Assembly (NCBI GenBank): GCA_900550145.1
Contig: URRF01000002.1
Coordinates: 5,228-69,227, forward strand
Length of the DNA stretch: 64,000 bases
Source: an uncultured Mollicutes bacterium
GTDB lineage: Bacteria; Bacillota_I; Bacilli_A; RF39; UBA660
Direction: 5' to 3'
A model generated the notes under the pieces. The model made no database searches and had not been told where the DNA came from. It saw only the letters and a program-made list of their open reading frames with translations. Every line of letters starts with the position of its first letter. The stretch's first letter is position 1. Position numbers and translations under genes: made by a program. Positions 906-56,750 of this stretch are shown here, piece by piece.

Positions 906-2267
906 GTGATGAATATGAATATAAAAACAAATTCTAAGAGAATAAAAAAGGGAGATACTTTTATTGCACTAAAAGGAATGACATATGATGGGCATGATTA
1001 TATAGAAGAAGCAATAGAAAATGGTGCAGAAAAAATAATATGTGAACATGGTGAATATAACGTACAAACAATTATTGTCCCTTCTACAAAAGAATATTTA
1101 AATAATTATTTAGATACCAATTACTACAATAAAATAAAAGATATTACATTAATAGGAATAACAGGCACTAATGGAAAAACCACATCTTGTTATTTTATAT
1201 ATGAACTATTAAAAATGTTAGATGTTAAATGTGCTTACATAGGAACAATTGGTTTTTTCATAGATAAAAAAGAAAGAGATTTAAATAATACAACACCAGA
1301 AATACTTGAATTATATGAAATGTTTTTAGAATGTAAAAGTAGAGGTGTAAATGTAATAGTTATGGAAGTATCAAGTCATGCACTTGAATTAGATAGAGTA
1401 CATGGATTAAAATTTAACTACGTTTGTTTTACAAATCTTACGGTTGATCATTTATTATTTCATAAAACTATGGATAATTATTTAAACGCCAAGAAAAAAT
1501 TATTTAATATGTTAAAAAAAGATGCAATTAGTATTACTAATGTTGATGATAAATATAAAGATAATTTCTTATTAGATGATACTATTACTTACGGAGAATC
1601 TAAAAGTGATTTTAATATAATAAAATATAAACTAAAGCTAGATAAAACTATATATAAATTAAGATATAATAATAAAAATTATAAAGTTAAAATGAATGTA
1701 ATAGGTAAATATAATATTTATAACTCATTAGTAGCAATTATAGTTTTAGTAAATATGGGATACAATATAAAGAAAGTTATTAAACTTTTTAAAAGAATTA
1801 AACTTCCTAGTGGTAGGTTAGACATGATCAAATATAAGAAAAATGTTATATTTGTAGATTATGCTCATACACCAGATGCAGTTAAAAATGTACTTACTAA
1901 CGCAATTAAATTTAAAAAAAACAAAATATATACAATAATTGGCTGCGGTGGAAACAGAGATAAAACAAAAAGAAAAGATATGGGAATTATAGCAACAGAA
2001 TTAAGTGATTATGTTATATTTACTAATGATAATCCTAGAAATGAAGATGAGATGAAAATAGTAAATGATATGATAAACGGCATAATAAATGAAAACTATG
2101 AAGTAATATTAGATAGAAGTAAAGCAATAAAAAGAGGTATAGATTTATTAAATAAAAAAGATATTTTATTTATACTTGGAAAAGGTCATGAAGAATATCA
2201 ACTTATAAATGGAATAAAACATCATTTTAGTGATAAAGAAGAGGTTTTAAATTATATTAACAAATAG
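906..2267 (+). CDS. Mur ligase, MurE-like paralog (UDP-MurNAc-tripeptide synthetase family), short N-terminal domain
   Basis: P-loop IGITGTNGKTT; central Mur ligase domain; C-terminal TNDNPRNED (MurE DNPR-type motif); 453 aa. Confidence 0.7.
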   Translation: MMNMNIKTNSKRIKKGDTFIALKGMTYDGHDYIEEAIENGAEKIICEHGEYNVQTIIVPSTKEYLNNYLDTNYYNKIKDITLIGITGTNGKTTSCYFIYELLKMLDVKCAYIGTIGFFIDKKERDLNNTTPEILELYEMFLECKSRGVNVIVMEVSSHALELDRVHGLKFNYVCFTNLTVDHLLFHKTMDNYLNAKKKLFNMLKKDAISITNVDDKYKDNFLLDDTITYGESKSDFNIIKYKLKLDKTIYKLRYNNKNYKVKMNVIGKYNIYNSLVAIIVLVNMGYNIKKVIKLFKRIKLPSGRLDMIKYKKNVIFVDYAHTPDAVKNVLTNAIKFKKNKIYTIIGCGGNRDKTKRKDMGIIATELSDYVIFTNDNPRNEDEMKIVNDMINGIINENYEVILDRSKAIKRGIDLLNKKDILFILGKGHEEYQLINGIKHHFSDKEEVLNYINK

Positions 2268-2356: not shown

Positions 2357-3940
2357 ATGATAACAGTTAACAACGTTTCATTAAGATTTGGGAAAAGAAC
2401 TTTATTTGAAGGAGTAAATTTAAAATTCACACCAGGAAATTGCTATGGAATAATTGGAGCGAATGGAGCAGGTAAGTCAACATTTTTAAAATTGTTAAGT
2501 GGAGAAATAGAAACAACTAGTGGTGAAATAAACATAGGAAAAGACGAAAGAATTTCAGTATTAAAACAGGACCATAATTTATATAATGATTATAGAGTAA
2601 TAGATACAGTAATAATGGGTAATAAAAGATTATACGAAATAATAGAAGAAAAAAATTTTCTATATACAAAAGAACCATTTACTGATAAGGATGGAATAAA
2701 ACTAGGAGAATTAGAAAGTGAATTTGCTTTTCTTAATGGATGGCAAGCAGAAAGTGATGCTGCTATTCTTTTGAGTGGTTTAGGTGTAGATATTCAACTT
2801 CACGAATTAACTATGAAAGAAATCCCAACTAAAGAAAAAGTAAAAGTATTACTTGCACAAGCATTGTTTGGAAATCCAGATGTTCTTCTTTTAGATGAAC
2901 CAACTAATGGACTTGATATAGAAGCAAAAATATGGCTAGAAGAGTTTCTAATAAATTTTGAAAATACAATATTAGTAGTTAGCCATGATAGACACTTTTT
3001 AAATAAAGTATGTACGCATATAGTGGATATAGATTATGAAAAAATTACGCTATTTGTAGGTAATTATGATTTCTGGTATAAATCAAGTGAACTTATTCAA
3101 AAACAAATGCGAGATTCAAATAAGAAAAAAGAAGAAAAAATAAAAGAACTTCAAGAATTTATTGCAAGATTTAGTGCAAATGCTTCAAAAAGTAAACAAG
3201 CAACATCAAGAAAAAAATTGCTTGATAAAATAGTACTTGATGATATAAAAGCATCTAGTAGAAAATACCCATATATCAACTTTAAAGAAGAAAAATCACT
3301 AGGAAGAGATGTGCTTACTACAAAGAATCTGTGTGTAAGTGTAGATGGAATAAAATTAATAAATAACTTAAACTTAACTATAAACAATTATGATAAAATT
3401 GCATTCATTGGAAATGAAATAATAATAACGACACTATTTAAAGTATTAAGTGGAGAAATAAAACCCGATTCTGGAGAAGTGATCTGGGGGAATACAGTAT
3501 TATTATCTTATTTTCCACATAATAATGATAATTATTTTAAAAGTAGTAAAAATATAGTTGAATGGCTTATGAGTTATTCTAATGTTGATGATGTAGAGTA
3601 CGTAAGAGGATTTTTGGGAAGAATGTTATTTAGTGGTGAAGATGCATTAAAAAAAGTTGATGTGTTATCAGGTGGTGAAAAAGTAAGGTGTATGCTATCA
3701 AAAATGATGTTAAGTGGTGCTAATACACTTATACTTGATCAACCAACAGATCATTTAGATGTAGAAACAATTACTAGTTTAAATAATGCACTTATTAATT
3801 TTAAGGGTGTAGTATTATTTAGTACTCACGATCATGAATTAATGGAAACTGTTGCAAATAGAATAATAGAGTTTAAAGATGATGGCAAATATATAGATAA
3901 AATGACTACATATGAAGAGTATTTAAAGATAAATAAGTAA
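2357..3940 (+). CDS. ABC-F family ATPase (two tandem NBDs, no TMD) with one degenerate ATP site
   Basis: NBD1 has Walker A GANGAGKST and Walker B LLLDEPT, but its signature is IPTKEKVKV instead of LSGGxxxR. NBD2 has a degenerate Walker A (GNEIIITTLF, no GKS/T), a good signature LSGGEKVR, and Walker B LILDQPT (E to Q). Confidence 0.85.
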   Translation: MITVNNVSLRFGKRTLFEGVNLKFTPGNCYGIIGANGAGKSTFLKLLSGEIETTSGEINIGKDERISVLKQDHNLYNDYRVIDTVIMGNKRLYEIIEEKNFLYTKEPFTDKDGIKLGELESEFAFLNGWQAESDAAILLSGLGVDIQLHELTMKEIPTKEKVKVLLAQALFGNPDVLLLDEPTNGLDIEAKIWLEEFLINFENTILVVSHDRHFLNKVCTHIVDIDYEKITLFVGNYDFWYKSSELIQKQMRDSNKKKEEKIKELQEFIARFSANASKSKQATSRKKLLDKIVLDDIKASSRKYPYINFKEEKSLGRDVLTTKNLCVSVDGIKLINNLNLTINNYDKIAFIGNEIIITTLFKVLSGEIKPDSGEVIWGNTVLLSYFPHNNDNYFKSSKNIVEWLMSYSNVDDVEYVRGFLGRMLFSGEDALKKVDVLSGGEKVRCMLSKMMLSGANTLILDQPTDHLDVETITSLNNALINFKGVVLFSTHDHELMETVANRIIEFKDDGKYIDKMTTYEEYLKINK

Positions 3941-5174: not shown

Positions 5175-6632
5175 TCATACTTCAAGTTTTTTTCTTTCCT
5201 TTATACATTTTTTAGCTTCTTCAATGTCATTAAAATATATTTTACCATCTTTTAATGCCTCATAAGTTTCATTACCTTTTCCAAGAATTAAAATCATATT
5301 ATCTTTCTCAGCCATATCAATAGCCCTTTTTATTGCTTCCCCTCTATCTACAACAACTTCAAATTTATCTTTCTTATCCATTACCTCACTAGTTAAATCA
5401 TTTATTATATCGATTGGATCCTCACTTCTAGGATCTTCATAAGTAAATATTACGTAATCAGCATTATCAACAAGAATTTTACCCATGATAGGCCTTTTTG
5501 TTTTATCACGCTCACCAGCAGAACCAGCAACTATAATAGTTTTATTTGCTTCTAATGTTTTAGTAAGAAGAAATAAATTTAAATATCCATTTGGAGTATG
5601 TGCATAATCCACTATAACTTTAAAATCTTGTCCTAAATCAATATTAGTCATCCTACCATCCACATATAATTTTTTATAATCAAGTTTATCTATATCAACT
5701 CCCATAATCAACAATACACTAAGTGCAGCAGTTAAATTATATACATTAAACATACCTAATAAAGGAGAATTAATTTTATATGTTTTATCCTTATATGTAA
5801 TAGTAAATAAAGTATAATCATGATTTATAACAACATCAGAAAACCTAACATCTGCTTTTTTATTACTACCATAATAAATGACTTTTCCATTACATTTTTT
5901 AAAAATCTCCTCAGAATACTTATCATCTATATTTAAAAATGAATAACCATTTTTCTTAGTTTGTTCAAATAAAATACACTTTGCATTCATATAATTTTCC
6001 ATAGATTTATGAAAATTTAAATGTTCATGAGTAAGATTTGTAAATATAGTATAATCAAATTCAATATTTTTACATCTTCCTTGAGCAAGTGCCTCACTAG
6101 CAGCTTCCATACAAACATACTTACAATCATTTAGATAAAAATTATTTAAAAACCTATGCAAATGCTCAGGAGTAGGAGTAGTATTATTAGATTTATCAGT
6201 ATAAGTTTCACAACAAACTCCATTCGTACCAATATAGCCACATTTACTAACTTGATTTAAAAGCTCATATAGTATAGTTGATGTACTTGTTTTTCCGTCA
6301 GTTCCAGTAACACCTATCATAGTCATTTTCTTACTTGGATAATCATAGAATTTAAAAGCCATATCAGAAAGCGCTTCATTCGTATTATCAACAACTATTT
6401 GTGGCAAACTCGAATTAACTTTATGATCAACCACTAATGCAGATGCACCTTTTTTTTCTGCTTCCTTCACATAATCGTGTCTATCTACATTAAATCCCTT
6501 TATACAAAAGAACAAATCTCCTTTATTTAATTCCTTTGTATTTGTTTTTATATCTTGAACCTCTGTTTCATACTCTGTATCAAATACTTGATTAAGTTTT
6601 TTCATAAAATCACCGTTAATATTATACCACAC
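5175..6632 (-). CDS. murE: UDP-N-acetylmuramoyl-tripeptide ligase MurE (canonical length)
   Basis: N-terminal MurE domain; P-loop MIGVTGTDGKTSTS; C-terminal FTYEDPRSED motif; 485 aa. Confidence 0.8.
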   Translation of the reverse strand: MWYNINGDFMKKLNQVFDTEYETEVQDIKTNTKELNKGDLFFCIKGFNVDRHDYVKEAEKKGASALVVDHKVNSSLPQIVVDNTNEALSDMAFKFYDYPSKKMTMIGVTGTDGKTSTSTILYELLNQVSKCGYIGTNGVCCETYTDKSNNTTPTPEHLHRFLNNFYLNDCKYVCMEAASEALAQGRCKNIEFDYTIFTNLTHEHLNFHKSMENYMNAKCILFEQTKKNGYSFLNIDDKYSEEIFKKCNGKVIYYGSNKKADVRFSDVVINHDYTLFTITYKDKTYKINSPLLGMFNVYNLTAALSVLLIMGVDIDKLDYKKLYVDGRMTNIDLGQDFKVIVDYAHTPNGYLNLFLLTKTLEANKTIIVAGSAGERDKTKRPIMGKILVDNADYVIFTYEDPRSEDPIDIINDLTSEVMDKKDKFEVVVDRGEAIKRAIDMAEKDNMILILGKGNETYEALKDGKIYFNDIEEAKKCIKERKKLEV

Positions 6633-10446: not shown

Positions 10447-10650
10447 CACATCATATTTATTTTGCAATGAAGAGAAATAGTAATAAATGATTTACTTAAA
10501 GAGAGTTAGTGGCAGGTGTAAACTAATAGTAATAGTTTATGAATTAAACTTGGAGCAAAATCGGATAAAACCGTTATAAAATGAGAGCATAAAATCTATG
10601 AACTAAGGTGGTACCGTTCAAGTTGAACCCTTAGATTATAGATTTTTTTT
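10447..10650 (+). promoter_or_regulatory. T-box riboswitch leader (Leu) with terminator/antiterminator
   Basis: T-box sequence AACUAAGGUGGUACCG (bulge UGGU complementary to the tRNA NCCA end). The terminator is ATCTATGAACTAAGG...CCTTAGATTATAGAT plus T8. A candidate specifier CUU-A lies in the upstream stem region. Confidence 0.7.
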
Positions 10651-14502: not shown

Positions 14503-15641
14503 AAAAGAAAACATCAATAGTAATAAGTATATTAACTTATCTAACAATAATACTTATATCTTGTTATTTTATAATCATACCAAATTCAAAAAAAATCAAT
14601 GAAACAAATAAAATAAAAGATCTAACTTATGATGATAAAATTAAACTAATAGACGAAATAAACGAAAAATATATTAAACAAGAAAACAACATTAATAATA
14701 AATACCAAGTAAAATTAGAGCAAATAGATGAAAAATATCAAAAATCTTACGAAGAACTTAATTCAAAATATAAAGAATTAGAAAACGATATTAATAAAAA
14801 AATTATTGACATTAATGTAGAATCTAACCAAGAATTCATGACTAATGGTTTAAGCAAAAAATATTATGAATTAAGAGACGAATGGTCTAGCTTACATAGT
14901 GAAAAATCAAACCTAACGTCATCAAAATATAAAGAAGAAAGCGAAATAAATAACAAAAAAAGAGAAGAAAAAAATACAATTACAAATAACAAAGAATCAG
15001 AAATAAAAAAATTAAACGATAAAAAAACAAATGAAATAAATAGAATTGATAATATAAATACTAATAAAAAACAAAAAATTAAAAAATGCATAATAAATAT
15101 AATTGTAGGAATTATAATAATTCTATTACCAATAATATATGTAATACTTAAATTTAATAAATTAACTAAATTATTAAATAATGTAAAAGAAAGTTGGAGT
15201 AGTGTTGATATATTACTAAAACAAAGAGCAGATTTAATTCCAAATATACTATCAGTAGTTAAAGGATATTCCAAGCACGAAAAAGATACACTAACTAAAA
15301 TTACAGAAGCAAGAAAAGAAGTGTTAAGTGCAGAAAATAAAAAAGATAGCATAAACGCTAACGAAAAATTAAGCAATGAAATTCCAAAAATACTATTATT
15401 AAAAGAAGAATATCCAGAATTAAAAGCAAACAAAAACTTTATGAAATTACAAAACAATTTAAGTGAAGTAGAAAACAATATTGCTATTTCAAGAAGTATA
15501 TATAACAAAAATGTACTTGATTACAAAAACAATATAGAAGTTTTCCCATCAAATATTATTGCAAGCATATTTAACTTTAAACCAGAACTATTTTTTGAAA
15601 TAGATAAAGAAGAAAGAGAGAACCCAACTATAAAACTTTAA
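14499..15641 (+). CDS. membrane-anchored long coiled-coil protein fused to a C-terminal LemA-family domain
   Basis: N-terminal TM helix, then a roughly 190-aa K/E/N-rich coiled coil, then a second TM helix. The C-terminus (LKQRADLIPNILSVVKGYSKHEKDTL...) is LemA-like. Confidence 0.6.
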   Translation: MKKKTSIVISILTYLTIILISCYFIIIPNSKKINETNKIKDLTYDDKIKLIDEINEKYIKQENNINNKYQVKLEQIDEKYQKSYEELNSKYKELENDINKKIIDINVESNQEFMTNGLSKKYYELRDEWSSLHSEKSNLTSSKYKEESEINNKKREEKNTITNNKESEIKKLNDKKTNEINRIDNINTNKKQKIKKCIINIIVGIIIILLPIIYVILKFNKLTKLLNNVKESWSSVDILLKQRADLIPNILSVVKGYSKHEKDTLTKITEARKEVLSAENKKDSINANEKLSNEIPKILLLKEEYPELKANKNFMKLQNNLSEVENNIAISRSIYNKNVLDYKNNIEVFPSNIIASIFNFKPELFFEIDKEERENPTIKL

Positions 15642-15711
15642 GATAAAAGTTATGCAAAATAAATGCATAATTTTTTATTGTGTAAAATAATTTAAAAATC
15701 AAAAAAAACGC

Positions 15712-15741
15712 TTGACAAACTGGGGGGGGGGGTAATATAAT
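15712..15741 (+). promoter_or_regulatory. promoter of the pilin-LRR gene with an 11-G homopolymer in the -35/-10 spacer
   Basis: TTGACA 15712-15717; G11 15722-15732; TATAAT 15736-15741 (18-nt spacer), or alternatively TAATAT 15733-15738 (15-nt spacer). Confidence 0.55.
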
Positions 15742-15777
15742 AGAGATATAATAAAAAAATAGAGGGAGAAATAAGAT

Positions 15778-16995
15778 ATGAAAAAAGGAAATGGCTTTAC
15801 ATTAATAGAATTATTAGCAGTAATAGCAATATTAGCAATAATACTAGTAATATCAATACCTAAGATATTAGATGTAATAGAAGAATCTAAAGTAAATACT
15901 TTAAAAAATACAATAAAGTTAATAGCAGATAGTGCAGAAAAGAAATATACAGAAAATGAGGCATTTGATGAAGAAGAGGATATTACTTGTGAATCTATTT
16001 CTAAATTAAGTAGTGATGATTACAAAAAATGTACAATTACATTTGATGAAGAGGGTAAAGCAAAAGTAAATATATTGTGTAAAAATAAATTTGAAGGATA
16101 TGAATGTACAGGTAATAGTGCAAATGTGACATGTAATATGGTAACAGATGAAAAATACTTTACATATGTTGAAGTAGAAGGTGGAATAGAAATAACAGAT
16201 TATAATGAAGAAGGTGGGAAAGATGTAGTGATACCAAGTATGATAGAAGGTAGTAATGTTATAAGTATAGGAACAAGGGCATTTTACAATAATCAATTAA
16301 CAAGTGTAATCATTCCAAATAGTGTTGTAAGTATAGGGAGTGATGCATTTTATTCTAATAAATTAACTAGTGTAATTATACCAAGTAGTGTTACAACCAT
16401 AGGTTGGGGTGCATTTAGAAATAATCAACTAACCAGTGTGATAATATCAGAAGGTGTTAAAGCCATAAGCGCTATTGCTTTTATGGATAATAAAATAACA
16501 AGTGTAATCATTCCAAATAGTGTTATAAAAATAGAAGGTGGTGCGTTTAATAATAATCAGTTATCAGATAATGATGCCTTCATATATAAAAGAAATAGTG
16601 ATGGAAGTATAGATAATACAACAATAGTTAGTTATGGAGGAAAGAATAAAAGTCCTATAATACCTAATACAGTTACAACTATAGGAGTAAATGCATTTTA
16701 TTCTAATAAATTAACTAGTGTAATTATACCAAGTAGTGTTACAAGTATAGAACAAAATGCATTTTATTCTAATAAATTAACAAGTGTGACTATACCAAGT
16801 AGTGTCACAAGTATAGGTAAAAATGCATTTTATAAATCAAGTTTTTCTAATTCAAACTTAACAAAAATAATAAATAAAACAGGTAAATCTTTTGATTGGG
16901 GGATTATAGTAAATGGTAGCTCTAGTACTGATTATACTTTTATAACAGGTACAGTAGTTAATAATACTGGTAATGTAGAAATAGTAAGTGAATAA
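15778..16995 (+). CDS. type IV prepilin-like N-terminus fused to BspA/TpLRR-type leucine-rich repeat domain (putative pilus-borne adhesin)
   Basis: N-terminus is MKKGNG|FTLIELLAVIAILAIIL (class III prepilin signal, G-1/F+1/E+5). The C-terminal half holds 23-aa repeats (NxFYSNKLTSVIIPSSVTSIG) with near-identical 69-bp DNA repeats. Confidence 0.7.
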   Translation: MKKGNGFTLIELLAVIAILAIILVISIPKILDVIEESKVNTLKNTIKLIADSAEKKYTENEAFDEEEDITCESISKLSSDDYKKCTITFDEEGKAKVNILCKNKFEGYECTGNSANVTCNMVTDEKYFTYVEVEGGIEITDYNEEGGKDVVIPSMIEGSNVISIGTRAFYNNQLTSVIIPNSVVSIGSDAFYSNKLTSVIIPSSVTTIGWGAFRNNQLTSVIISEGVKAISAIAFMDNKITSVIIPNSVIKIEGGAFNNNQLSDNDAFIYKRNSDGSIDNTTIVSYGGKNKSPIIPNTVTTIGVNAFYSNKLTSVIIPSSVTSIEQNAFYSNKLTSVTIPSSVTSIGKNAFYKSSFSNSNLTKIINKTGKSFDWGIIVNGSSSTDYTFITGTVVNNTGNVEIVSE

Positions 16996-17030
16996 CAAAA
17001 AAGAATTTTTTAACAAAAGATTCTTTTTTC
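16996..17030 (+). terminator. rho-independent terminator
   Basis: AAAAGAAT...ATTCTTTTTT hairpin. Confidence 0.5.
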
Positions 17031-17097
17031 TATATTTTGATTGACTTTAGAAAAACCATAATTATAATATAGGTACAAAATTATTTAGGGAGGTTTT

Positions 17098-20401: not shown

Positions 20402-21226
20402 ATGGGCAATTTAGGTTTCAAAATTAAAAGATTTTTACAAAACAAAAATACAGTAACAATTATAGGAGTAGCACTTATTGTTGGTATAATATACTTTGGA
20501 TATAATTATAGAATAAAACAAGCTACTAATCCTACAAAGGTTCCGTACGCAAAAACAACAATACAACCAAGAACAAAAATAACGGAAGATATGATTGGAT
20601 ACATGGATGTTATGCCTAGTATGATTAACAAATCAACAATCACAAATATAAAATATATAGTAGGTAAATGGTCTAATTATAATACAATAATACCAGAGGG
20701 AAGTTTGTTTTACACACAAACAGTTGTTACATCTGATCAATTACCAGATTCAGCATTTATTACAATACCAGAGGGCTATACACCATTTAACTTATCTGTA
20801 AACGTTAATAGTACTTATGGTAATTCAATATTTCCAAATAACTATATAGATGTATATTTTAAATATTTAAACTCTGATGGCAAGGTAACTGTAGGTAAAC
20901 TAATTGAAAATGTTAAAGTACTTGCTGTAAAAGATAGAAATGGAAAACATGTTTTTGAAAATAGTGATGAAGAAAGAGTTCCAAGCATCATAATATTTGC
21001 TGTGCCTGAAGATATGCATTTATTATTGAGAAAAGCAACATATCTATCAAATATAAGAGAAATTTCTGCAGAATTAATACCAGTACCTACAACTGAGTCA
21101 TATAGTTCTGAACCAGGCGCTATTAGATTGGCTAGTACAGCACTTAAAAACTTCATAGAATTAAATACAGGTACAGTTCCAGTAGATGAATTGCCACCAA
21201 TTTATGATCCTACTGAAGAGCAGTAG
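20402..21226 (+). CDS. CpaB/RcpC-like Flp pilus assembly protein (TM plus SAF-like domain)
   Basis: N-terminal TM helix; the VDVYF...VKVLAVKD...IIIFAVPEDMHLLLRKA pattern is typical of CpaB. Confidence 0.5.
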   Translation: MGNLGFKIKRFLQNKNTVTIIGVALIVGIIYFGYNYRIKQATNPTKVPYAKTTIQPRTKITEDMIGYMDVMPSMINKSTITNIKYIVGKWSNYNTIIPEGSLFYTQTVVTSDQLPDSAFITIPEGYTPFNLSVNVNSTYGNSIFPNNYIDVYFKYLNSDGKVTVGKLIENVKVLAVKDRNGKHVFENSDEERVPSIIIFAVPEDMHLLLRKATYLSNIREISAELIPVPTTESYSSEPGAIRLASTALKNFIELNTGTVPVDELPPIYDPTEEQ

Positions 21227-21243
21227 AAAAAAGGGAGGGCTTT

Positions 21244-22362
21244 ATGGATACGATGTTTACTAATGTTGATTTTGGCCCATTAAAAAAATATTTAGATGAT
21301 GACGATATTACTGACGTATCATATAGTAATAATGGGCAGTTATGGCTTAAATCACTTTCAAAGGGAATTTATAAGCCGGAATTGCAAGACGTTAATAATG
21401 CTATAATTGAAAAGCTTGCTTTTCAGTGCGCAAATATGATGGGTAAAACTTTCAATATGGCACACCCCTTTTTGGATGCAGAAAGTGCAGAACTTCGTCT
21501 TAACTTTGTACATGATTCAATAGCAAAAAATGGTATTGCACTTTTAATGAGAAAAACACCCGCAAAGATCAGATTAAAAAAAGAAAAAATAATAGAAGAA
21601 AAATATATAACAGAAACCATACATGACTTTCTACTTAAATGTGTTGAAGGTCATTGCAATATAATTATAAGTGGTGAAACAGGTAGTGGTAAAACAGAGT
21701 TTTTAAAATATCTAGCCGCACATACTAAAGAAAATGAAAAACTTATAACTATAGAGGATACTCTAGAACTACATTTAGATAGAATATTCCCATATAGAGA
21801 TATAGTAGCAATGAAAACTAATAATATTGCATCTTATTCAGATGTATTAGTTACATGCATGAGACAAAATCCAAAATGGATATTACTATCAGAAGTACGT
21901 AGTGCAGAAGCGGTAATGGCTGTGCGTAATTCCATTTCATCAGGACACTATATAATATCTACAATACATGCTGATAAAGCCGCTTCAATACCAAATCGTA
22001 TGTATAGTTTGCTTGAAACTAACCTTGATATTGATCAATTCTTAAAATCAGTTTATAGATATGTTCAAATAGGCGTTCATATAAGAGGATACCAAGATAA
22101 AAATACACAACGATTTATTCGTGAAGTTTGTGAAGTTTGCGAATTTTATGTTGATGATGAGAATAACGCAAAAAGTAATATAATTTATAAAAAAACACCA
22201 ACTGGACAAGTTTATTATGCAAATCCAACTAGATATCTATTGGATTATTTATCAGCACAGGGTGTAATCCTTCCTAAAGATGTTATAGTAAAGCAAGAGG
22301 AAGATGTTACAAGTACACCAACTGTGAAATCAAAATTAAGTGAAGAAATACTAGAGATATAA
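21244..22362 (+). CDS. TadA/CpaF-type secretion ATPase (type II/IV secretion NTPase family)
   Basis: Walker A IISGETGSGKTEFLK; VirB11/CpaF-like core; 372 aa. Confidence 0.8.
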   Translation: MDTMFTNVDFGPLKKYLDDDDITDVSYSNNGQLWLKSLSKGIYKPELQDVNNAIIEKLAFQCANMMGKTFNMAHPFLDAESAELRLNFVHDSIAKNGIALLMRKTPAKIRLKKEKIIEEKYITETIHDFLLKCVEGHCNIIISGETGSGKTEFLKYLAAHTKENEKLITIEDTLELHLDRIFPYRDIVAMKTNNIASYSDVLVTCMRQNPKWILLSEVRSAEAVMAVRNSISSGHYIISTIHADKAASIPNRMYSLLETNLDIDQFLKSVYRYVQIGVHIRGYQDKNTQRFIREVCEVCEFYVDDENNAKSNIIYKKTPTGQVYYANPTRYLLDYLSAQGVILPKDVIVKQEEDVTSTPTVKSKLSEEILEI

Positions 22363-22377
22363 TAAAGGAGGTATACT

Positions 22378-23271
22378 ATGGAATTTTTACTAATACTCAT
22401 TATTGCTCTATTTATAGTAATTTATAGAAAAAATACAGGTGCTATTACATATAAGTTTATAGTTGGAAAAGTAGGAGAAGCATATGATAAATTTGCACCC
22501 TACTCATTTAAAAAAATAAGAGAGAAAGTAAAAGAACTCGGCATGGAATATACCCCAAAACAATATACAGTGCAAGTAATAATGTTTGCAGGTGCTGCGT
22601 TTATAGTTTCATATTTATATTTTTACAGCATAATAATAAGTATTTTTTATGTAGTAGTAGCAGTATTAGTTATTCCATATTTAGCTTACTTAAGATGTAA
22701 AAGAGTATATAGCGAATTTATTTTTGAACAAATCCAAGTATATACAACAAATACAATAATGGAATTTGCTGTAACTGAATCATTTGTAAAATCATTAGAA
22801 GGTGTCTATTCATCTGGAGTATTAGAAGATCCCGTTTTAAGTGATGTAAAACATATGATAGATATGTCCTATGTAAATGGGTCAGTAAAAGAATCAATAG
22901 AATATATGGATAAAAAATATGACTATCATATAGTAAAAAATATGCATCAATTATTTTATCAAATTACACAAGAGGGCTCATTAGATGCTAAAGATACACT
23001 AGATGCAATGCTTGTAGATATAGATGCACTAGTAGAAGGTGTTTATAGAGATAGAATTGATAGATCTGCATTTCATAAATCATTTTTAAGATATGGAATC
23101 CTATTATACTTGATGGTAATGTTAATTCAGTATCTGCTTGGAATGGATTCGTATTTAAAATTATTAGATCAAACAGTAGTTAGAATATTATTACATGCAA
23201 TTATTATAATTAATAGTTATTTCTTACTAAATGGTGAAAAATATTATAATGAGAATGTAGGTGCTGAATAA
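22378..23271 (+). CDS. TadB-like inner-membrane platform protein (T2SSF-like)
   Basis: Polytopic membrane protein directly downstream of the ATPase; topology typical of this family. Confidence 0.45.
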   Translation: MEFLLILIIALFIVIYRKNTGAITYKFIVGKVGEAYDKFAPYSFKKIREKVKELGMEYTPKQYTVQVIMFAGAAFIVSYLYFYSIIISIFYVVVAVLVIPYLAYLRCKRVYSEFIFEQIQVYTTNTIMEFAVTESFVKSLEGVYSSGVLEDPVLSDVKHMIDMSYVNGSVKESIEYMDKKYDYHIVKNMHQLFYQITQEGSLDAKDTLDAMLVDIDALVEGVYRDRIDRSAFHKSFLRYGILLYLMVMLIQYLLGMDSYLKLLDQTVVRILLHAIIIINSYFLLNGEKYYNENVGAE

Positions 23272-24050
23272 TGGAGATATTAGTAGTTGGTATAATTATT
23301 CTTTATATATTAGAGAAGAATAAAAAAATAAATAGTGGACAATTTATACAAGAAAATACTGCATTTTTAGACAAATTAAAAGAATCAGATTATGATTTTC
23401 TAGTTAGAAGTAAGTATGGAGAAGATGTAGATCCTAACGTTCTTTTTCAAAAAAGAACAAAGAATGCATTTATAGTAATAGTATTTCTTATATTCTTATT
23501 TATTACTCAATTATCTTTTTTAAATGTATTAGCTGCATTTGTAGTTGGATTTGTTGTTTTCAAATCATCATACAGTAGTTTAAAAACCTATTACAAAAAA
23601 CATTTACATGAGATAAATTTACAATTACCATATTTTCTTAAAACACTAGAAGTATTAGCACAGCATTATACAATACCAGTAGCATTAGCAAAAAGTATTG
23701 ATAGTGCACCAGAAATATTTAGATCTGGTTTAAGAAATTTAGTAGAAAGAATAAATGAAGGAGATTCAACTGTTGAACCATATATGGATTTCGCTAAAGA
23801 ATATCCAGTAAATGATTCAATGAGAATGATGAGATTATTATATAGATTAGGTCTTGGTTCCCAGGAAAATAAACATGAACAACTTGTAATGTTCTCAAAA
23901 AGTGTATCAGCACTTCAAAATAAAGCAAGAGAAACAAGATATAAAGAAAGATTACAAGTAATGGAAAACAAGACAATGATAATGCTGGGTGCAGTTGGTG
24001 GAGGAGTAATGTTATTACTTTTAATATCAATGTTACAATCATTTTCGTAA
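23271..24050 (+). CDS. TadC-like inner-membrane platform protein (T2SSF-like); N-terminal region contains an IS-derived 64-nt segment
   Basis: TM helices flank a cytoplasmic domain. Nucleotides 23312-23375 are 63/64 identical to the IS3 orfA segment at 49030-49092 (reverse complement). Confidence 0.45.
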   Translation: MEILVVGIIILYILEKNKKINSGQFIQENTAFLDKLKESDYDFLVRSKYGEDVDPNVLFQKRTKNAFIVIVFLIFLFITQLSFLNVLAAFVVGFVVFKSSYSSLKTYYKKHLHEINLQLPYFLKTLEVLAQHYTIPVALAKSIDSAPEIFRSGLRNLVERINEGDSTVEPYMDFAKEYPVNDSMRMMRLLYRLGLGSQENKHEQLVMFSKSVSALQNKARETRYKERLQVMENKTMIMLGAVGGGVMLLLLISMLQSFS

Positions 24051-41154: not shown

Positions 41155-41940
41155 AATAAATGCCAAGAAATATTAAACAAAAGAAGAAATGAAATGTCAG
41201 AGAAAGAACATCATTCTAAACATTATTGCTATAGATATACATTTAGTTCTAAAATTGAATGCGGTATATGTGGCTCAAATTATGTCCATAGAATAAGCTG
41301 TAATCAAAAAGGAAAGAAATATTTCTATTGGTCTTGTTATAATAAAGTTACTTTAAAGGAAAAATGTCCCAAATCATTAACAATTAGAGAAGATATATTA
41401 AAAGAAATGTTTATTGAAGTTTATAACTCAATTACAACTCAAAAGCATAAAACGAGAGATAGACTAATAAAAGCAATAAAAGAAACTATAACTAGCGAAG
41501 ATAATAAGAAGGAATTGAGTAAACTTTATAGTGAAGTACAAACTTTACAAAAAAGACTATCTAATTTAATTGATTTAAAACTTTATAGAATAGAAAACAA
41601 AGATGTCTATAATGAAAAAGAAAAAGAAATTTCAAATAAAATAAAAATGCTAAATGAACAAATTGAACTGTTAGAATATAAAGATAAACAGAATAAAGAT
41701 ATATCTAAAAGACTTAAAGACATTGAGAAAATCATAAATAAAGAAGAACAACCAATGGAAATGTTTGATGATGTTAAATTTGAAAATTTAGTAGAAAAAA
41801 TAATTATAGGCGAACAAGATAGAGATGGTTATATTAATTCTAATACTATAAGATTTGTTCTAAAAATTGGTACAGAGTATAAATTTAAAGATTTGTCATT
41901 TGTGCCAAACAAGAAATATAGGTGCAGTAGAGAGTTCTAA
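41155..41940 (+). pseudogene. C-terminal fragment of a large serine recombinase (zinc-ribbon + coiled-coil), abutting the tyrS fragment
   Basis: CGICGSNYVHRISCNQKGKKYFYWSC zinc ribbon followed by a coiled coil. The N-terminal resolvase and recombinase domains are absent. The frame is open from 41155, immediately after the tyrS-fragment stop. Confidence 0.55.
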
Positions 41941-47910: not shown

Positions 47911-48711
47911 TTACTTTTTAACACTACAAAAGAATATATGGTAAACAATTTTTATCCAACCGTTAATAGATTCCATAGCACCATTTTCAGTTGGAGAACC
48001 TGGCTTAGAAACAGAATGTATGATATTATATAGGTATAAAGATTCATTGAAACTTTTAGAGCAGTACACGGAACCTTGGTCTGAGTGGATGATCATTTCA
48101 AGGTCTGTGTACTTTTTATTTTTTTCTTCAATAAGCATAGACATAGCAATAAGATAAGCATCAGGATTGCCTTTTTTATTTGATAAATAGTAAGCAACTA
48201 TTTCGTTATTAAATAAGTCCATATAAAGTGTAAGCTCATAATAATGTTTATTTGCCAAAAAAGCAGTCATATCAGTAACAATAAGCTGAAAAGGCCTTAA
48301 AGGATTTAATTCAGCTAAAATGTAATTAAGAAAGTTTTTAAGCTCACGATTTACTTTTTTACCAAACCTTTTAAAATGTTTAGAAGCAGATTTAATATTA
48401 AGAAATTTACATATTTTGTGAGCATAATTATCAGAGTAAACGATACCGTTATCTAATCTAATTTTAGCATTTAACCAGCGATAGCCATGAGAAGGATATC
48501 TCTTATGATATTCCTCAAATTCTCTGCAAGCATAAGATCTACTTAATTCTCTTTGAGAAGGATTGTTTCTTCTACCTAACCATTTATAAAAACCAGAACG
48601 GTTAATACTCATTTCTTTACACAAAGCATTGATAGAATATTTATTAGATAATTCCAAAATTACTTCATATTTTTTTTGGAGGAAGTAACGAATACCTTTT
48701 TTCCGTACCAC
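47911..48711 (-). CDS. IS3-family transposase OrfB (DDE integrase core)
   Basis: HTH (SINALCKEMSINRSGFYKW); DDE residues in IVTDMT, HSDQGSVY, ESINGWIK. Confidence 0.85.
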   Translation of the reverse strand: MVRKKGIRYFLQKKYEVILELSNKYSINALCKEMSINRSGFYKWLGRRNNPSQRELSRSYACREFEEYHKRYPSHGYRWLNAKIRLDNGIVYSDNYAHKICKFLNIKSASKHFKRFGKKVNRELKNFLNYILAELNPLRPFQLIVTDMTAFLANKHYYELTLYMDLFNNEIVAYYLSNKKGNPDAYLIAMSMLIEEKNKKYTDLEMIIHSDQGSVYCSKSFNESLYLYNIIHSVSKPGSPTENGAMESINGWIKIVYHIFFCSVKK

Positions 48712-51201: not shown

Positions 51202-53403
51202 ATGTCAGAACAAAATATAGTTGTATCAATAATTTCTTTAATAAACATTATAATATTAATGTTTGTTTTCTTTGGTAAAGAACATATAAAAACTGTTGAA
51301 ACAAATCTTTATCAAGCATTACTTGTAAATAGTTTTATTACACCAGTTTTAGAAATCATATGTTACTTTACTGTAAAATTTGGATTAAAACATTTTTCAT
51401 TTACATATGCAATATTAAATAAATTAATATTAATATCATATGTAACATGGATATTGTTATTTTTGCTTTACGTTATAACAATTCTTTTAAATATTTCAAA
51501 ACAAAAATTCAGAAAATTCTTATATATATACTTAGGAATTGGTTTACTAATAATAACTCTAATTATAATAAACAAATTAGAATTTAAAACAATAGATAAC
51601 CTAATAATACCTAGTGGTTTACCATCAGTAATTGTATACTTAACAGCTGGAATATCAGATTTTATAATGATTATATTACTATTATTTAATATAAAAAAAG
51701 CAACAAGTAAAAAACTAATACCATTATACACTATGTTAGCTTTTGGTATTATGGCAATGATATTTCAAAGCACAAATCCACAATACTTTTTACTTACATC
51801 AGTATTAATTTATACAACTATTATTATGTATTTCACAATAGAAAATCCAGATTTAAAAATGATAAGTGAATTAAATATGGCAAAAGAACACGCAGAAAAA
51901 GCAAATAGAGCAAAAAGCGATTTTTTAAGTAGTATGAGTCATGAAATAAGGACACCACTTAATGCAATAGTCGGGTTATCAGAAGATATAGAAGGAAGAG
52001 AAGATTGCCCTAATTCTATTAAAGATGATTTAAGTGATATTGTATCCGCATCACATACACTTCTTGAAATAGTTGGTAATATAATGGATATTAATAAGAT
52101 TGAAAGCAATAAAGTAGAAATAATTGAAATACCTTATGATTTCAAAACAGAACTTGAAACCTTATGTAGAGTAAATAAGATAAGAATTAAAGATAAACCA
52201 ATTGATTTTAGCGTAGATATCGCACCAGATATACCATATGAATTATTAGGAGATAAACCACATATTAAACAAATTATTAACAACCTAGTTTCTAATGCTA
52301 TAAAATATACAAATAGTGGGTTTGTAAAAGTAAGTGCAAAATGCATAAATAAAGATAATATATCAACAATAATACTTACTGTACATGATTCAGGAATTGG
52401 TATCAAAGAAGAAAATATAAAAAAATTATTTACTAAATTTGAACGATTAGATGTAGAAAAAAATACAACAACAGAAGGTACAGGACTAGGACTTGCAATA
52501 ACTAAAAAATTAGTTGAACTTATGGGTGGGAAAATAAATGTGTCATCACAATATGGAAGTGGTTCTATATTTATGGTTACTATTCCACAGAAAATAAGTA
52601 AAATTAATGAGGAATTAACAAATACGCAAAAATTAAATTTAGGAATAAATGTTAAGAATGTAGATTGTAGTAATAAATCTATTCTGGTTGTTGATGATAA
52701 CAAATTAAATATAAAAGTAGCAAGAAGAAGTATAGAAGCACTTGGGTTTAAAAATATAGATGAATGTTATAATGGACAAGAATGTTTAGACAAAATAAAA
52801 AATGGTAATTACTATGATGTGATTCTTATGGATATAATGATGCCTATTATGAATGGAGAAAAATGTATACAAGAATTAAAACAGATACCTAATTTTGATA
52901 CACCAGTTATTGCACTTACAGCAGATGCAGTAGCTGGTTCAGAAGAAAAATATAAGTCCGAAGGATTTATAGATTACATAGCAAAACCATTTAGTAAAGA
53001 CCAAATAAAAGAAAAACTGGATAACATATTAACAAATCAAACTCCTACTAACGAAAAATACTTAGAAGAAAATAACATAGATTATAAAAAAGGAATAGAA
53101 TTATTCGGAAGTATAGAAATGTATAAAGAAATGTTAAAAGAATGGTATAAAACAATAAATAACAAATGGGAAAAAATAGTTACATATAAAAATAATAAAG
53201 ATATGACTAACTATAGTATAGAAGTGCATTCATTAAAAAGTGATTCAAAATATTTTGGATTTACTAAATTAATAGAATTATCATTAAATCATGAACTAAA
53301 AAGTAAAGAGAATGATATAGAATATGTAAATAATAATTTTAATGAGTTAGAGATTGAATATAGGAGAATTATGAATATAGTAAATAACTATTTAAATAAA
53401 TGA
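51202..53403 (+). CDS. hybrid sensor histidine kinase (multi-TM sensor, HisKA, HATPase, REC, HPt)
   Basis: About 6 N-terminal TM helices; H-box [11 protein letters not shown]; G-boxes [18 protein letters not shown]; [13 protein letters not shown]...[10 protein letters not shown]; C-terminal HPt (HSLKSD). Confidence 0.85.
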
Positions 53404-53475: not shown

Positions 53476-53503
53476 TTGACAAATATATAAAAATATGTAT
53501 AAT
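53476..53503 (+). promoter_or_regulatory. sigma-A type promoter for the acyltransferase gene
   Basis: TTGACA, 16-nt spacer, TG-TATAAT. Confidence 0.55.
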
Positions 53504-54494: not shown

Positions 54495-56750
54495 ATGAGC
54501 AATTTATATTTCCCAATATGTGCCTTATTTATCTCATCATTATTATTAATTATATTTTTTTCTAAAGAAAGAATAAATATTTTAGATACAAAGCTATTTT
54601 CATTTTTATTAATTGTTAATTTTCTTGATTCATTACTTAATACCATAATAATATATTTAGGTTATACCAAACCAACAGGAATTACTTTAATAAAAATTTT
54701 AAATAGAATTGATTTTCCTTTATATATTTTATGGGCATGGCTATTTTTCTTATATATTTTTCATATAAGTACAGAAAAGAAAAAAACTCATAATTTATTT
54801 AAAATTATATTTAATATTAGTTTAGTTATTAATATTATTGCTATTTTATTTTCTATAATTTTACCTTTTGAAATACAAAATTCAAATAATATTATGTATG
54901 CTTATGGAAATAGTGTAAATGTTTTATATATAATGTGTGGTATATATATGTTTCTAACTTTATTTTGTGTTTTATTAAATATAAAAAGATTATTAAATAA
55001 AAAATATGCACCCGTTTATGTATTAATATTGTTTGCATTTATCATTGGGTATATTAGATTAATTAATCCAAGCTTAATACTCATCTCGGCTGTTATCTCT
55101 TATATTAACTTAATTCTTTATTTTACAATAGAAAATCCAGATATGAAAATGATAAGTGAGTTAAATGTTGCTAAGAATAATGCAGAAAAAGCAAATAGGG
55201 CAAAGAGTGATTTTTTATCAAGTATGTCACATGAAATAAGGACACCACTTAATGCAATTGTAGGTTTATCAGAAGATATAAAAGAAAGAGGAACATGTCC
55301 TGATAATATGAAGGAAGATTTAAATGATATTGTTTCTGCTTCTCATACTTTACTTGAAATAGTAGGTAATATAATGGATATTAATAAAATAGAAAGTGAT
55401 AAGATTAAGATTACAGAAATGCCATATAATTTTAGGGAAGAATTAGAAACTTTATGTAGAGTAAATAAAGTAAGAATAGGTGATAAACAAATTGATTTTA
55501 GAGTAAATATCGCACCTGATATTCCATATGAGTTATTAGGAGATAAACCTCATATCAAACAAGTAATTAATAATCTTGTATCTAACGCGATTAAGTATAC
55601 TAATGAAGGATTTATAGAAGTAAACGCTAAATGTATAAATAAAGATAATATATCAACAATAATCCTTACTGTACAAGATTCAGGTATGGGTATTAAAGAA
55701 GAGAATATAAAAAAATTATTTACAAAGTTTGAAAGATTAGATGTAGAAAGAAATACTACTGCAGAAGGAACAGGACTAGGTCTTGCAATAACTAAGAAAT
55801 TAGTTGAATTAATGGGTGGTAAAATAAATGTATCATCACAATATGGAACTGGTTCAATGTTTATGGTACAAATACCACAAAAGATAAGTAAGATGAATAG
55901 TGATTTAACAAATACACAAAAATTAAATCTAGGTTTAAATATTAAAAATATAGATTGTAGTAATAAATCTATCCTTGTTGTTGATGATAATAAACTAAAT
56001 ATCAAGGTAGCAAGAAGAAACATAGAGGCACTAGGATTTAAAACAATAGATGAATGCTATAATGGTAGTGAATGTTTAGAAAAGATAAAAAATGGTAATA
56101 GGTATGATTTAATATTAATGGATATAATGATGCCTGTTATGAGTGGAGAAACTTGTATAAAAGAATTAAAACAAATACCTAATTTTAAAATACCAGTAAT
56201 TGCATTAACTGCGGATGCAATATCTGGTGCAGAAGAAAAATATAAATCTATTGGATTTATTGACTATTTATCAAAACCATTTACTAAAGACCAAATAAAA
56301 GAAAAAATATCAAATTTATTTGATACTTCGGAACATGTTAATGTGAATGTAGAGGTACGTGCAGAGAATACTGAAGTTATATCAAGTGATAATTCTAAGG
56401 AAGATTATTTGAAAGAAAATAATATAGATTATAATAAGGGAATAGAATTATTTGGTAGTATGGATATGTATAATAGTATGTTATCTGATTGGTATAAAGG
56501 AATAAATGATAAATGGAATAAGATAATTAGTTATAAGAATAATAATGATATGACTAATTATGCAATAGAAGTACACTCATTAAAAAGTGACGCTAAATAC
56601 TTTGGATTTACTAAGTTAGCAGAGTTATCATTAAATCATGAATTAAAAAGTAAAGATAATGATATAGATTATGTTAATAGTAATTTTAGTGAGTTAGAGT
56701 TAGAATATAAAAGAATTCTAAATATAGTAGATAATTATTTAAATAAGTAA
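54495..56750 (+). CDS. hybrid sensor histidine kinase, paralog of 51202-53403
   Basis: Same domain order. HisKA through HPt is strongly similar to kinase 1. The N-terminal TM sensor is more diverged. Confidence 0.85.

Follow-up and report, generated by a model that had tools for sequence, protein, structure and literature searches.

RESULTS

Architecture of the pilin promoter

The locus lies in a 64-kb stretch of DNA that was analyzed as a whole, referred to here as the window, and centers on a gene for a prepilin with BspA-type LRR repeats. The upstream neighbor is a LemA-family gene that ends at 15641. The elements from there to the end of the pilin transcription unit are as follows.

15645 to 15681, + strand: terminator-like A/T-rich hairpin after the LemA gene (12-bp stem, −9.9 kcal/mol, z = −2.0)
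15685 to 15711, + strand: A/T-rich block AATAATTTAAAAATCAAAAAAAACGC, 5' of the −35 hexamer
15712 to 15717, + strand: −35 hexamer TTGACA (direct reading and consensus scan), kept in 26 of the 27 promoter-spanning assemblies described below
15722 to 15732, + strand: G11 homopolymer, the hypervariable element, within the 18-nt spacer
15733 to 15738, + strand: alternative, weaker −10-like hexamer TAATAT (direct reading), overlapping the main −10 TATAAT
15736 to 15741, + strand: −10 hexamer TATAAT (consensus scan), 37 nt from its end to the ATG
15764 to 15768, + strand: predicted ribosome-binding site GGGAG (direct reading), 9 nt 5' of the ATG at 15778
15778 to 16995, + strand: regulated gene, 405 aa, prepilin plus BspA-type LRR (Pfam N_methyl and LRR_5)
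16997 to 17029, + strand: terminator-like hairpin after the pilin gene (15-bp stem, −11.2 kcal/mol)

Read directly in the interval from 15400 to 16100, the promoter has the form caaaaaaaacgc-TTGACA-aact-GGGGGGGGGGG-taa-TATAAT, with an 18-nt spacer (15718 to 15735) that consists of AACT, G11, and TAA. This reading confirmed all of the coordinates given for TTGACA, the G run, and TATAAT in the original prediction, as well as the 18-nt spacing. In a consensus scan the promoter scored 12 of 12 and was the top site, at the motif level, between 14000 and 18500. There are three perfect TTGACA-N16-18-TATAAT sites in the 64 kb, each directly 5' of an ORF. Spacers are 16 to 17 nt long at the other strong promoter-like sites of the window, several of which end 27 to 37 nt before an ATG. 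The geometry of the pilin promoter is normal for this genome apart from its longer spacer. A second TATAAT was found by direct reading at 15747 to 15752. An extended −10 was considered for the window allele and rejected, as TG is missing from the required position. The A/T-rich block at 15685 to 15711 accompanies the promoter into differing genomic contexts and may have an UP-element-like role.

Terminator-like hairpins flank the gene on both sides, the first of them followed or overlapped by a T6 run, which indicates that TTGACA-18-TATAAT is the pilin gene's own promoter. The first hairpin would shield the pilin gene from transcription that arrives from upstream. The next gene downstream has a separate TTGACT-16-TATAAT promoter at 17041 to 17068, and this, together with the flanking hairpins, indicates that the pilin gene is monocistronic. 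Folding predicted an unstructured 5' untranslated region for the pilin gene, and an Rfam scan of the window gave no element at the pilin promoter. An explanation by a riboswitch or leader was dropped because the only Rfam element in the window is a T-box before leuS.

The window has a GC content of 25.7% and a G frequency of 0.153 by composition count. A homopolymer census of the 64 kb gave five G5 runs, one G11, and no C run of 5 or longer; besides the G11, there was no second G/C run longer than 5 in the window. From base composition, about 6e-5 G runs of 11 or longer are expected by chance in 64 kb. The claim that this is the sole G/C run longer than about 5, and unlikely by chance, was thus borne out. 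With a single tract in 64 kb, one cannot speak of phase-variable loci as a genome-wide set.

The pilin protein and its surroundings

The N terminus of the encoded protein, MKKGNG-FTLIE, is a class III (prepilin) leader with a hydrophobic helix after it, and the complete type IV pilin signature is present (MKKGNG-FTLIELLAVIAILAIILVISIP, with a basic leader, Gly, F at +1, Glu at +5, and a helix). The Pfam N_methyl match had an E value of 6.6e-7 and 29.1 bits against a cutoff of 21.2. Leader and helix are followed by about 130 aa and then by LRR units of 22 aa, and the translation shows units with the ending LTSVxIP; the units are of the BspA type, and the LRR_5 match (E = 6.9e-42) extends across two stretches. 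The promoter had been predicted to serve a surface adhesin-like pilin, and a prepilin fused to BspA-type LRRs (N_methyl and LRR_5) agrees with that description. By protein look-up, the exact pilin protein is present in many human-gut metagenomes.

Pilin alleles from different strains (P0001 to P0011) are 361, 383, 405, or 427 aa long, and their sizes step by multiples of 22 aa, the length of one LRR unit. The internal DNA repeats of the gene are about 81% identical, for example, 16258 to 16404 against 16672 to 16818. The 22-aa steps and the internal repeats indicate that the protein also varies in size between strains through gain and loss of repeat units. The same repeats cause an assembly gap in L021, in which the pilin gene call is missing. 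That the L021 pilin is a pseudogene was considered and rejected, as an N gap lies inside the LRR repeats.

The chromosomal surroundings are those of a walled Firmicute, with two murE genes, a LysM protein, helD, tyrS, relA, and argS, and the window also contains rpsD, ezrA, and RNase J. The two murE genes (UDP-MurNAc-tripeptide synthetase) are divergent paralogues within 6 kb, at 906 to 2267 (+) and 5175 to 6632 (−), and such a pair is unusual in a genome of about 1.2 Mb. The T-box leader lies 5' of leuS at 10458 to 10635 (98.5 bits), as expected for a Firmicute. A Tad-like set is present, with RcpC/CpaB at 20402 to 21226 and a T2SSE ATPase at 21244 to 22362; it spans 20402 to 24050, 3.4 kb downstream, and includes two unannotated proteins of 297 and 259 aa. 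Within the 64-kb window, neither a prepilin peptidase nor a further GFTLIE-type prepilin was found. Farther along lie two paralogous hybrid kinases of HisKA-HATPase_c-Response_reg architecture, at 51202 to 53403 (733 aa) and 54495 to 56750 (751 aa), and between them an acyltransferase gene preceded by a perfect TTGACA-16-TATAAT promoter at 53476. An rve-type integrase/transposase ORF at 47911 to 48711 (−) and a serine-recombinase-like fragment at 41194 to 41940 (+), the latter with a weak XisF-like match, indicate remnants of mobile elements in the window.

Tract length across assemblies

Exact-protein look-ups with the pilin, its neighbors, and allelic variants yielded 50 loci, and two collection scans added 2 more. 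The scan of a genome collection with the pilin gave a single distant match, L014, at 35% identity in an "uncultured Bacilli" MAG, and a gapped-pattern scan of a metagenome contig collection likewise gave a single match, L015, with G10. The ungapped promoter-spanning set comprised 27 sequences, the window and 26 other human-gut metagenome assemblies, which are not fully independent, as some ENA analyses may reassemble one sample (e.g., L005 and L006).

Eight clean G-run lengths, spanning 8 to 16, were found among the 27 assemblies, the consensus length from short-read assemblies being possibly off by one. There were 2 assemblies with G8, 1 with G9, 4 with G10, 8 with G11, 8 with G12, and 1 each with G13, G14, and G16; L022 showed only G6, and its sequence looks error-ridden. 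The corresponding spacers between −35 and −10 were 17 nt in 5 assemblies, 18 nt in 6, 19 nt in 9, 20 nt in 1, 21 nt in 2, 22 nt in 2, 23 nt in 1, and 24 nt in 1. None of the 27 spanning assemblies had a spacer shorter than 17 nt. Tract length is therefore the opposite of invariant across strains from different people, ranging from G8 to G16 with near-identical flanks in the 27 assemblies.

Pairwise comparisons place the differences at the tract itself. L005 and L006 align to the window over 2175 and 2045 nt, respectively, with 0 mismatches and a single gap, which is one extra G. Over 15 kb, 152 substitutions separate L015 from the window but only two indels, G11/G10 and A8/A7, both of them in the pilin promoter. 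Five assemblies (L030 to L034) share one 427-aa pilin allele and differ by 0 to 7 single-nucleotide polymorphisms in about 2.1 kb, and their G runs, in order, are G11, G8, G8, G11, and G12. The tract is a real indel hotspot where each G alters the promoter spacing. Loss or gain of a single G from the window allele had been predicted to give spacers of 17 and 19 nt, and both states, G10 and G12, exist naturally. An artefact of a single assembly had also been raised, and the tract was found with the same unique flanks in the 26 other assemblies. The A8 run lies at 15701 to 15708, just 5' of the −35 hexamer, and is A7 in 17 of the 24 intact promoters scored.

The observed lengths also bear on the choice of −10 element. 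With TAATAT (15733 to 15738) as the main −10, the natural spacers would be 14 to 21 nt with a mode of 16, and the optimum would fall at G13, which is rarely seen. TAATAT was rejected in this role and, because it fits more poorly than TATAAT, kept only as a secondary element.

About 16 further assemblies break, gap, or misjoin at the tract. L010 and L012 are chimeric, with unrelated GC-rich DNA joined at the tract. Junctions of the tract with unrelated GC-rich DNA or Nextera adapter are located at 3725 to 3790 in L010, 3724 to 3805 in L012, and 1 to 43 in L007. Such breaks, gaps, and chimeras fit mixed lengths or a long homopolymer and are suggestive, not specific: Illumina sequencing is known to handle poly-G badly, and artefacts and quality loss there also yield assembly breaks. 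In published MAGs of this organism, breaks or chimeric joins are likely at the pilin gene.

Allele classes, relatives, and origin of the tract

There were two main promoter alleles. One reads AACT-Gn-TAA-TATAAT, with n of 10 to 12 and one case of 16, and the other, found in many strains, reads AACT-Gn-TGG-TAA-TATAAT (Gn-TGG-TAATATAAT), with n of 8 to 14. The T interruption in the second allele produces TGG-TAATAT, a TGn extended −10 for the overlapping TAATAT, and this might lessen the dependence of the TGG allele on the −35 spacing. Rare forms are AACAT-G10-TG-TATAAT in L023, with a spacer of 17 nt, and AAC-G11-TGATGA-TATAAT in L036.

The promoter module was found behind at least 4 distinct upstream contexts, among them LemA, hairpin DNA beside an IS30-like (HTH_38) transposase, and, in L017, a sigma-factor gene. 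In L016, L018, and L035, homology to the window begins at 15685, and the DNA farther upstream differs. L029 is a mosaic that joins the upstream half of one promoter class to the tract half of another, which indicates that the promoter has recombined. The left border of the pilin gene (window position 15685, where the conserved promoter module has its left edge; L016, L018, L029, L035, L036, L043, and L017) is a hotspot of rearrangement and recombination. A palindrome, GAACATATGTTC, lies 2 nt 5' of the −35 hexamer in related alleles (L043, about 345 to 356); near the −35 it reads GAACAAATGTTC in L029 and is degenerate in L023 and L024, and the window allele is without it. Its arrangement, GAAC-N4-GTTC, is that of the Bacillus LexA/Cheo box, and by that resemblance the pilin of some strains might be under the control of SOS or of another repressor.

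More divergent homologues showed different spacers. L043, at 58% identity, has TTGACA-AGCATAGGGGAGGGGAGTG-TATAAT, and L024 has TTGGCA-AATAATATGAGAGGGGTG-TATAAT, both with interrupted G-rich spacers. Neither a tract nor a G-rich spacer was found in L017, which is 83% identical and lies in a different neighborhood, or in L039 to L042, which are 50 to 64% identical and represent 20 contigs. These homologues (L017, L039 to L042, L043, and L024) led us to reject the poly-G run as a family-wide feature of pilin-LRR proteins. With the pure tract missing from distant homologues, the pure homopolymer is lineage restricted and derived from a G-rich spacer, and the interrupted G-rich spacer of the relatives is a plausible precursor.

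DISCUSSION

A candidate slipped-strand switch

The interpretation of the tract as a phase switch, put forward in the original prediction, is supported, and we consider the locus a well-supported candidate switch. The G tract is likely to be a contingency element of the simple-sequence type, located within the core promoter of a pilin/adhesin gene that is monocistronic. Replication slippage occurs at high rates in G/C runs of roughly 8 or longer, and the run is G11 in the window and G8 to G16 elsewhere. Among strains, the tract is the sole indel in 2 kb of otherwise identical sequence, and several allele backgrounds and genomic contexts have kept it as a pure tract in the face of a strong A+T bias.

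In the proposed mechanism, slipped-strand mispairing at replication would add bases to the G run or remove them, and each G would move −35 and −10 closer together or farther apart by 1 bp and turn them about 34 degrees relative to each other, so that binding by RNA polymerase with its housekeeping sigma factor would shift with the spacing. Promoters of the sigma-70/sigma-A type have an optimal spacer of 17 bp, and their activity falls stepwise away from it. The strongest transcription would then be expected from G10 (spacer of 17), reduced transcription from G11, the state of the window (spacer of 18), and low or no transcription from G12 and longer (spacers of 19 to 24). The population would be a heritable, reversible mix of cells that display the LRR-pilin at a high level, at a low level, or not at all, and host immunity, phage, or niche would select among these states. 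Selection acting on the surface pilin/adhesin would also keep the tract against the strong A+T bias of the genome. In this model, expression would depend on tract length because sigma-70/sigma-A promoters depend on spacer length, and porA provides a precedent (PMC3639595). We likewise infer that TTGACA and TATAAT form the active promoter, that expression tracks spacer length, and that switching is fast, reversible, and intraclonal.

If the model is right, expression would be low or off in most hosts, since most natural spacers are 18 to 19 nt or longer. Alternatively, the optimal spacing, or the −10 actually used, may differ from what we assumed. The floor at 17 and the tail of long spacers could reflect selection for low expression, a bias toward expansion, or a wrong choice of −10.

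Alternative explanations

The same distribution can be read as the product of a neutral mutational hotspot, in which the run slips and is not maintained for regulation, any change in expression being a by-product or being buffered by, for example, a different promoter element. Spacers of 19 to 24 nt, supposedly poor, do occur in 16 of the 27 assemblies, the second TATAAT at 15747 to 15752 is available, the TGn extended −10 of the TGG allele could work without the −35 spacing, and there is one tract only in 64 kb. However, an unselected run of G8 to G16 should decay to A/T at 25.7% GC, yet several allele classes and contexts still carry it. Its location, moreover, is precisely the spacer of a promoter that scores 12/12 and belongs to a surface-protein gene, and symmetric drift does not predict the absence of spacers below 17 nt. 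We therefore regard neutrality as unlikely. We are more skeptical of the idea that the G-rich spacer serves first of all to bind a protein or as a structural element, its length variation being secondary. Its attraction lies in the divergent L043 (AGCATAGGGGAGGGGAGTG) and L024 (AATAATATGAGAGGGGTG), which are G-rich without a homopolymer, an unusual composition in A+T-rich DNA; but a fixed binding site does not sit easily with lengths that differ by as much as 8 nt, L017 and L039 to L042 are without any G-rich spacer, and no regulator was identified. This reading seems to us quite improbable.

That the lengths are homopolymer errors of sequencing or assembly, the true tract being invariant, is hardly credible. 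Poly-G is indeed a weak point of Illumina chemistry, and many contigs end, gap, or turn chimeric at the tract, and L022 looks error-ridden as well. Such errors would have to account for differences of up to 8 nt (G8 versus G16) and for lengths that recur in near-identical strains from different analyses, with G8 in L031 and L032 and G11 in L030 and L033. In the 15-kb comparison with L015, moreover, the A8/A7 run in the same promoter was the sole other differing homopolymer, and allele-specific interruptions such as TGG recur in many samples.

Returning to the promoter switch, a broader reading would give this uncultured gut Firmicute, with its small genome, two layers of variation, a promoter poly-G dimmer whose range stops at the 17-nt optimum and the gain and loss of 22-aa LRR units within the pilin. 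We hold this combined reading only tentatively, as possible rather than probable. Within it, the dimmer may have evolved from an interrupted G-rich spacer, and the T interruption that creates the TGn extended −10 may have partly rewired some lineages.

Significance

As a candidate, the pilin-promoter tract would be a slipped-strand switch of a well-known kind in a lineage with none described, and its mechanism would be unsurprising. A literature search for this locus or lineage found nothing specific. Most known cases of phase variation in gut commensals involve invertible promoters (Bacteroides and Clostridioides), along with a few intragenic tracts. Here, a promoter-spacer candidate switch in the style of pathogens would act on a pilin/adhesin of a reduced-genome, uncultured Firmicute that many people carry. 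With eight clean lengths on near-identical backgrounds, within-host switching could be traced by read counting alone, and the locus lets selection by immunity, phage, or niche be examined. Should host IgA or pilus-specific phage drive both layers, public metagenomes alone would suffice to study this contingency locus, and this would suggest, if true, that simple-sequence-repeat phase variation stands beside DNA inversion as a common adaptive strategy in Gram-positive gut commensals. There is a practical lesson as well, in that the tract repeatedly disrupts metagenome assemblies, so that MAGs can easily miss the gene and its regulation.

Comparison with known systems

Phase-variable promoters of the same promoter-spacer kind include the poly-C tracts of opc and fetA in Neisseria meningitidis. 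The vlp genes of Mycoplasma hyorhinis have poly-A tracts in the promoter spacers of surface-protein genes, and their coding regions vary through repeats. The vlp and pilin loci are alike in having a spacer homopolymer, a surface protein, and repeat-driven size variation, and M. hyorhinis is a low-GC Firmicute relative. The tract is poly-G and the pilin gene single here, whereas vlp has poly-A and a multigene lipoprotein family, and M. hyorhinis is wall-less, unlike the present organism with its murE, LysM protein, and ezrA.

The closest geometry is that of porA in N. meningitidis, which has 11G between −35 and −10 and is expressed in the order 11G > 10G > 9G (PMC3639595). The claim that the pilin promoter has the geometry of known spacer-length phase-variable promoters thus finds its match there (PMC3639595). 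In both, a run of about 11 G lies between −35 and −10 of a surface-protein gene and is polymorphic in length among strains; the graded expression with single-G steps belongs to porA. The two differ in the product, a pilin-LRR fusion here and a porin there, and in the host, which here is a very low-GC, Gram-positive-type, uncultured gut Firmicute. The pilin lengths also run upward from the presumed optimum (spacers of 17 to 24), not downward. In Helicobacter pylori, a T-tract in the sabA promoter tunes an adhesin stepwise through DNA geometry (PMC4081817). The sabA tract lies 5' of the −35 and aligns UP-like and core elements, whereas the pilin tract lies inside the core spacer. Further systems are those of Bifidobacterium breve of the gut, in which sortase-pilus genes are switched by G tracts (PMC9187656), and of "Ca. 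Mycoplasma girerdii," whose BspA-like proteins are phase variable through dinucleotide simple-sequence repeats, as detected from metagenome data (PMC5476646). These organisms share with the present one a mucosal or gut commensal life and pilus or BspA-LRR proteins, and their switching by slippage is like the mechanism proposed here. However, their switches work by intragenic frameshift and are on/off, whereas the candidate switch described here would be transcriptional and would act through promoter spacing.
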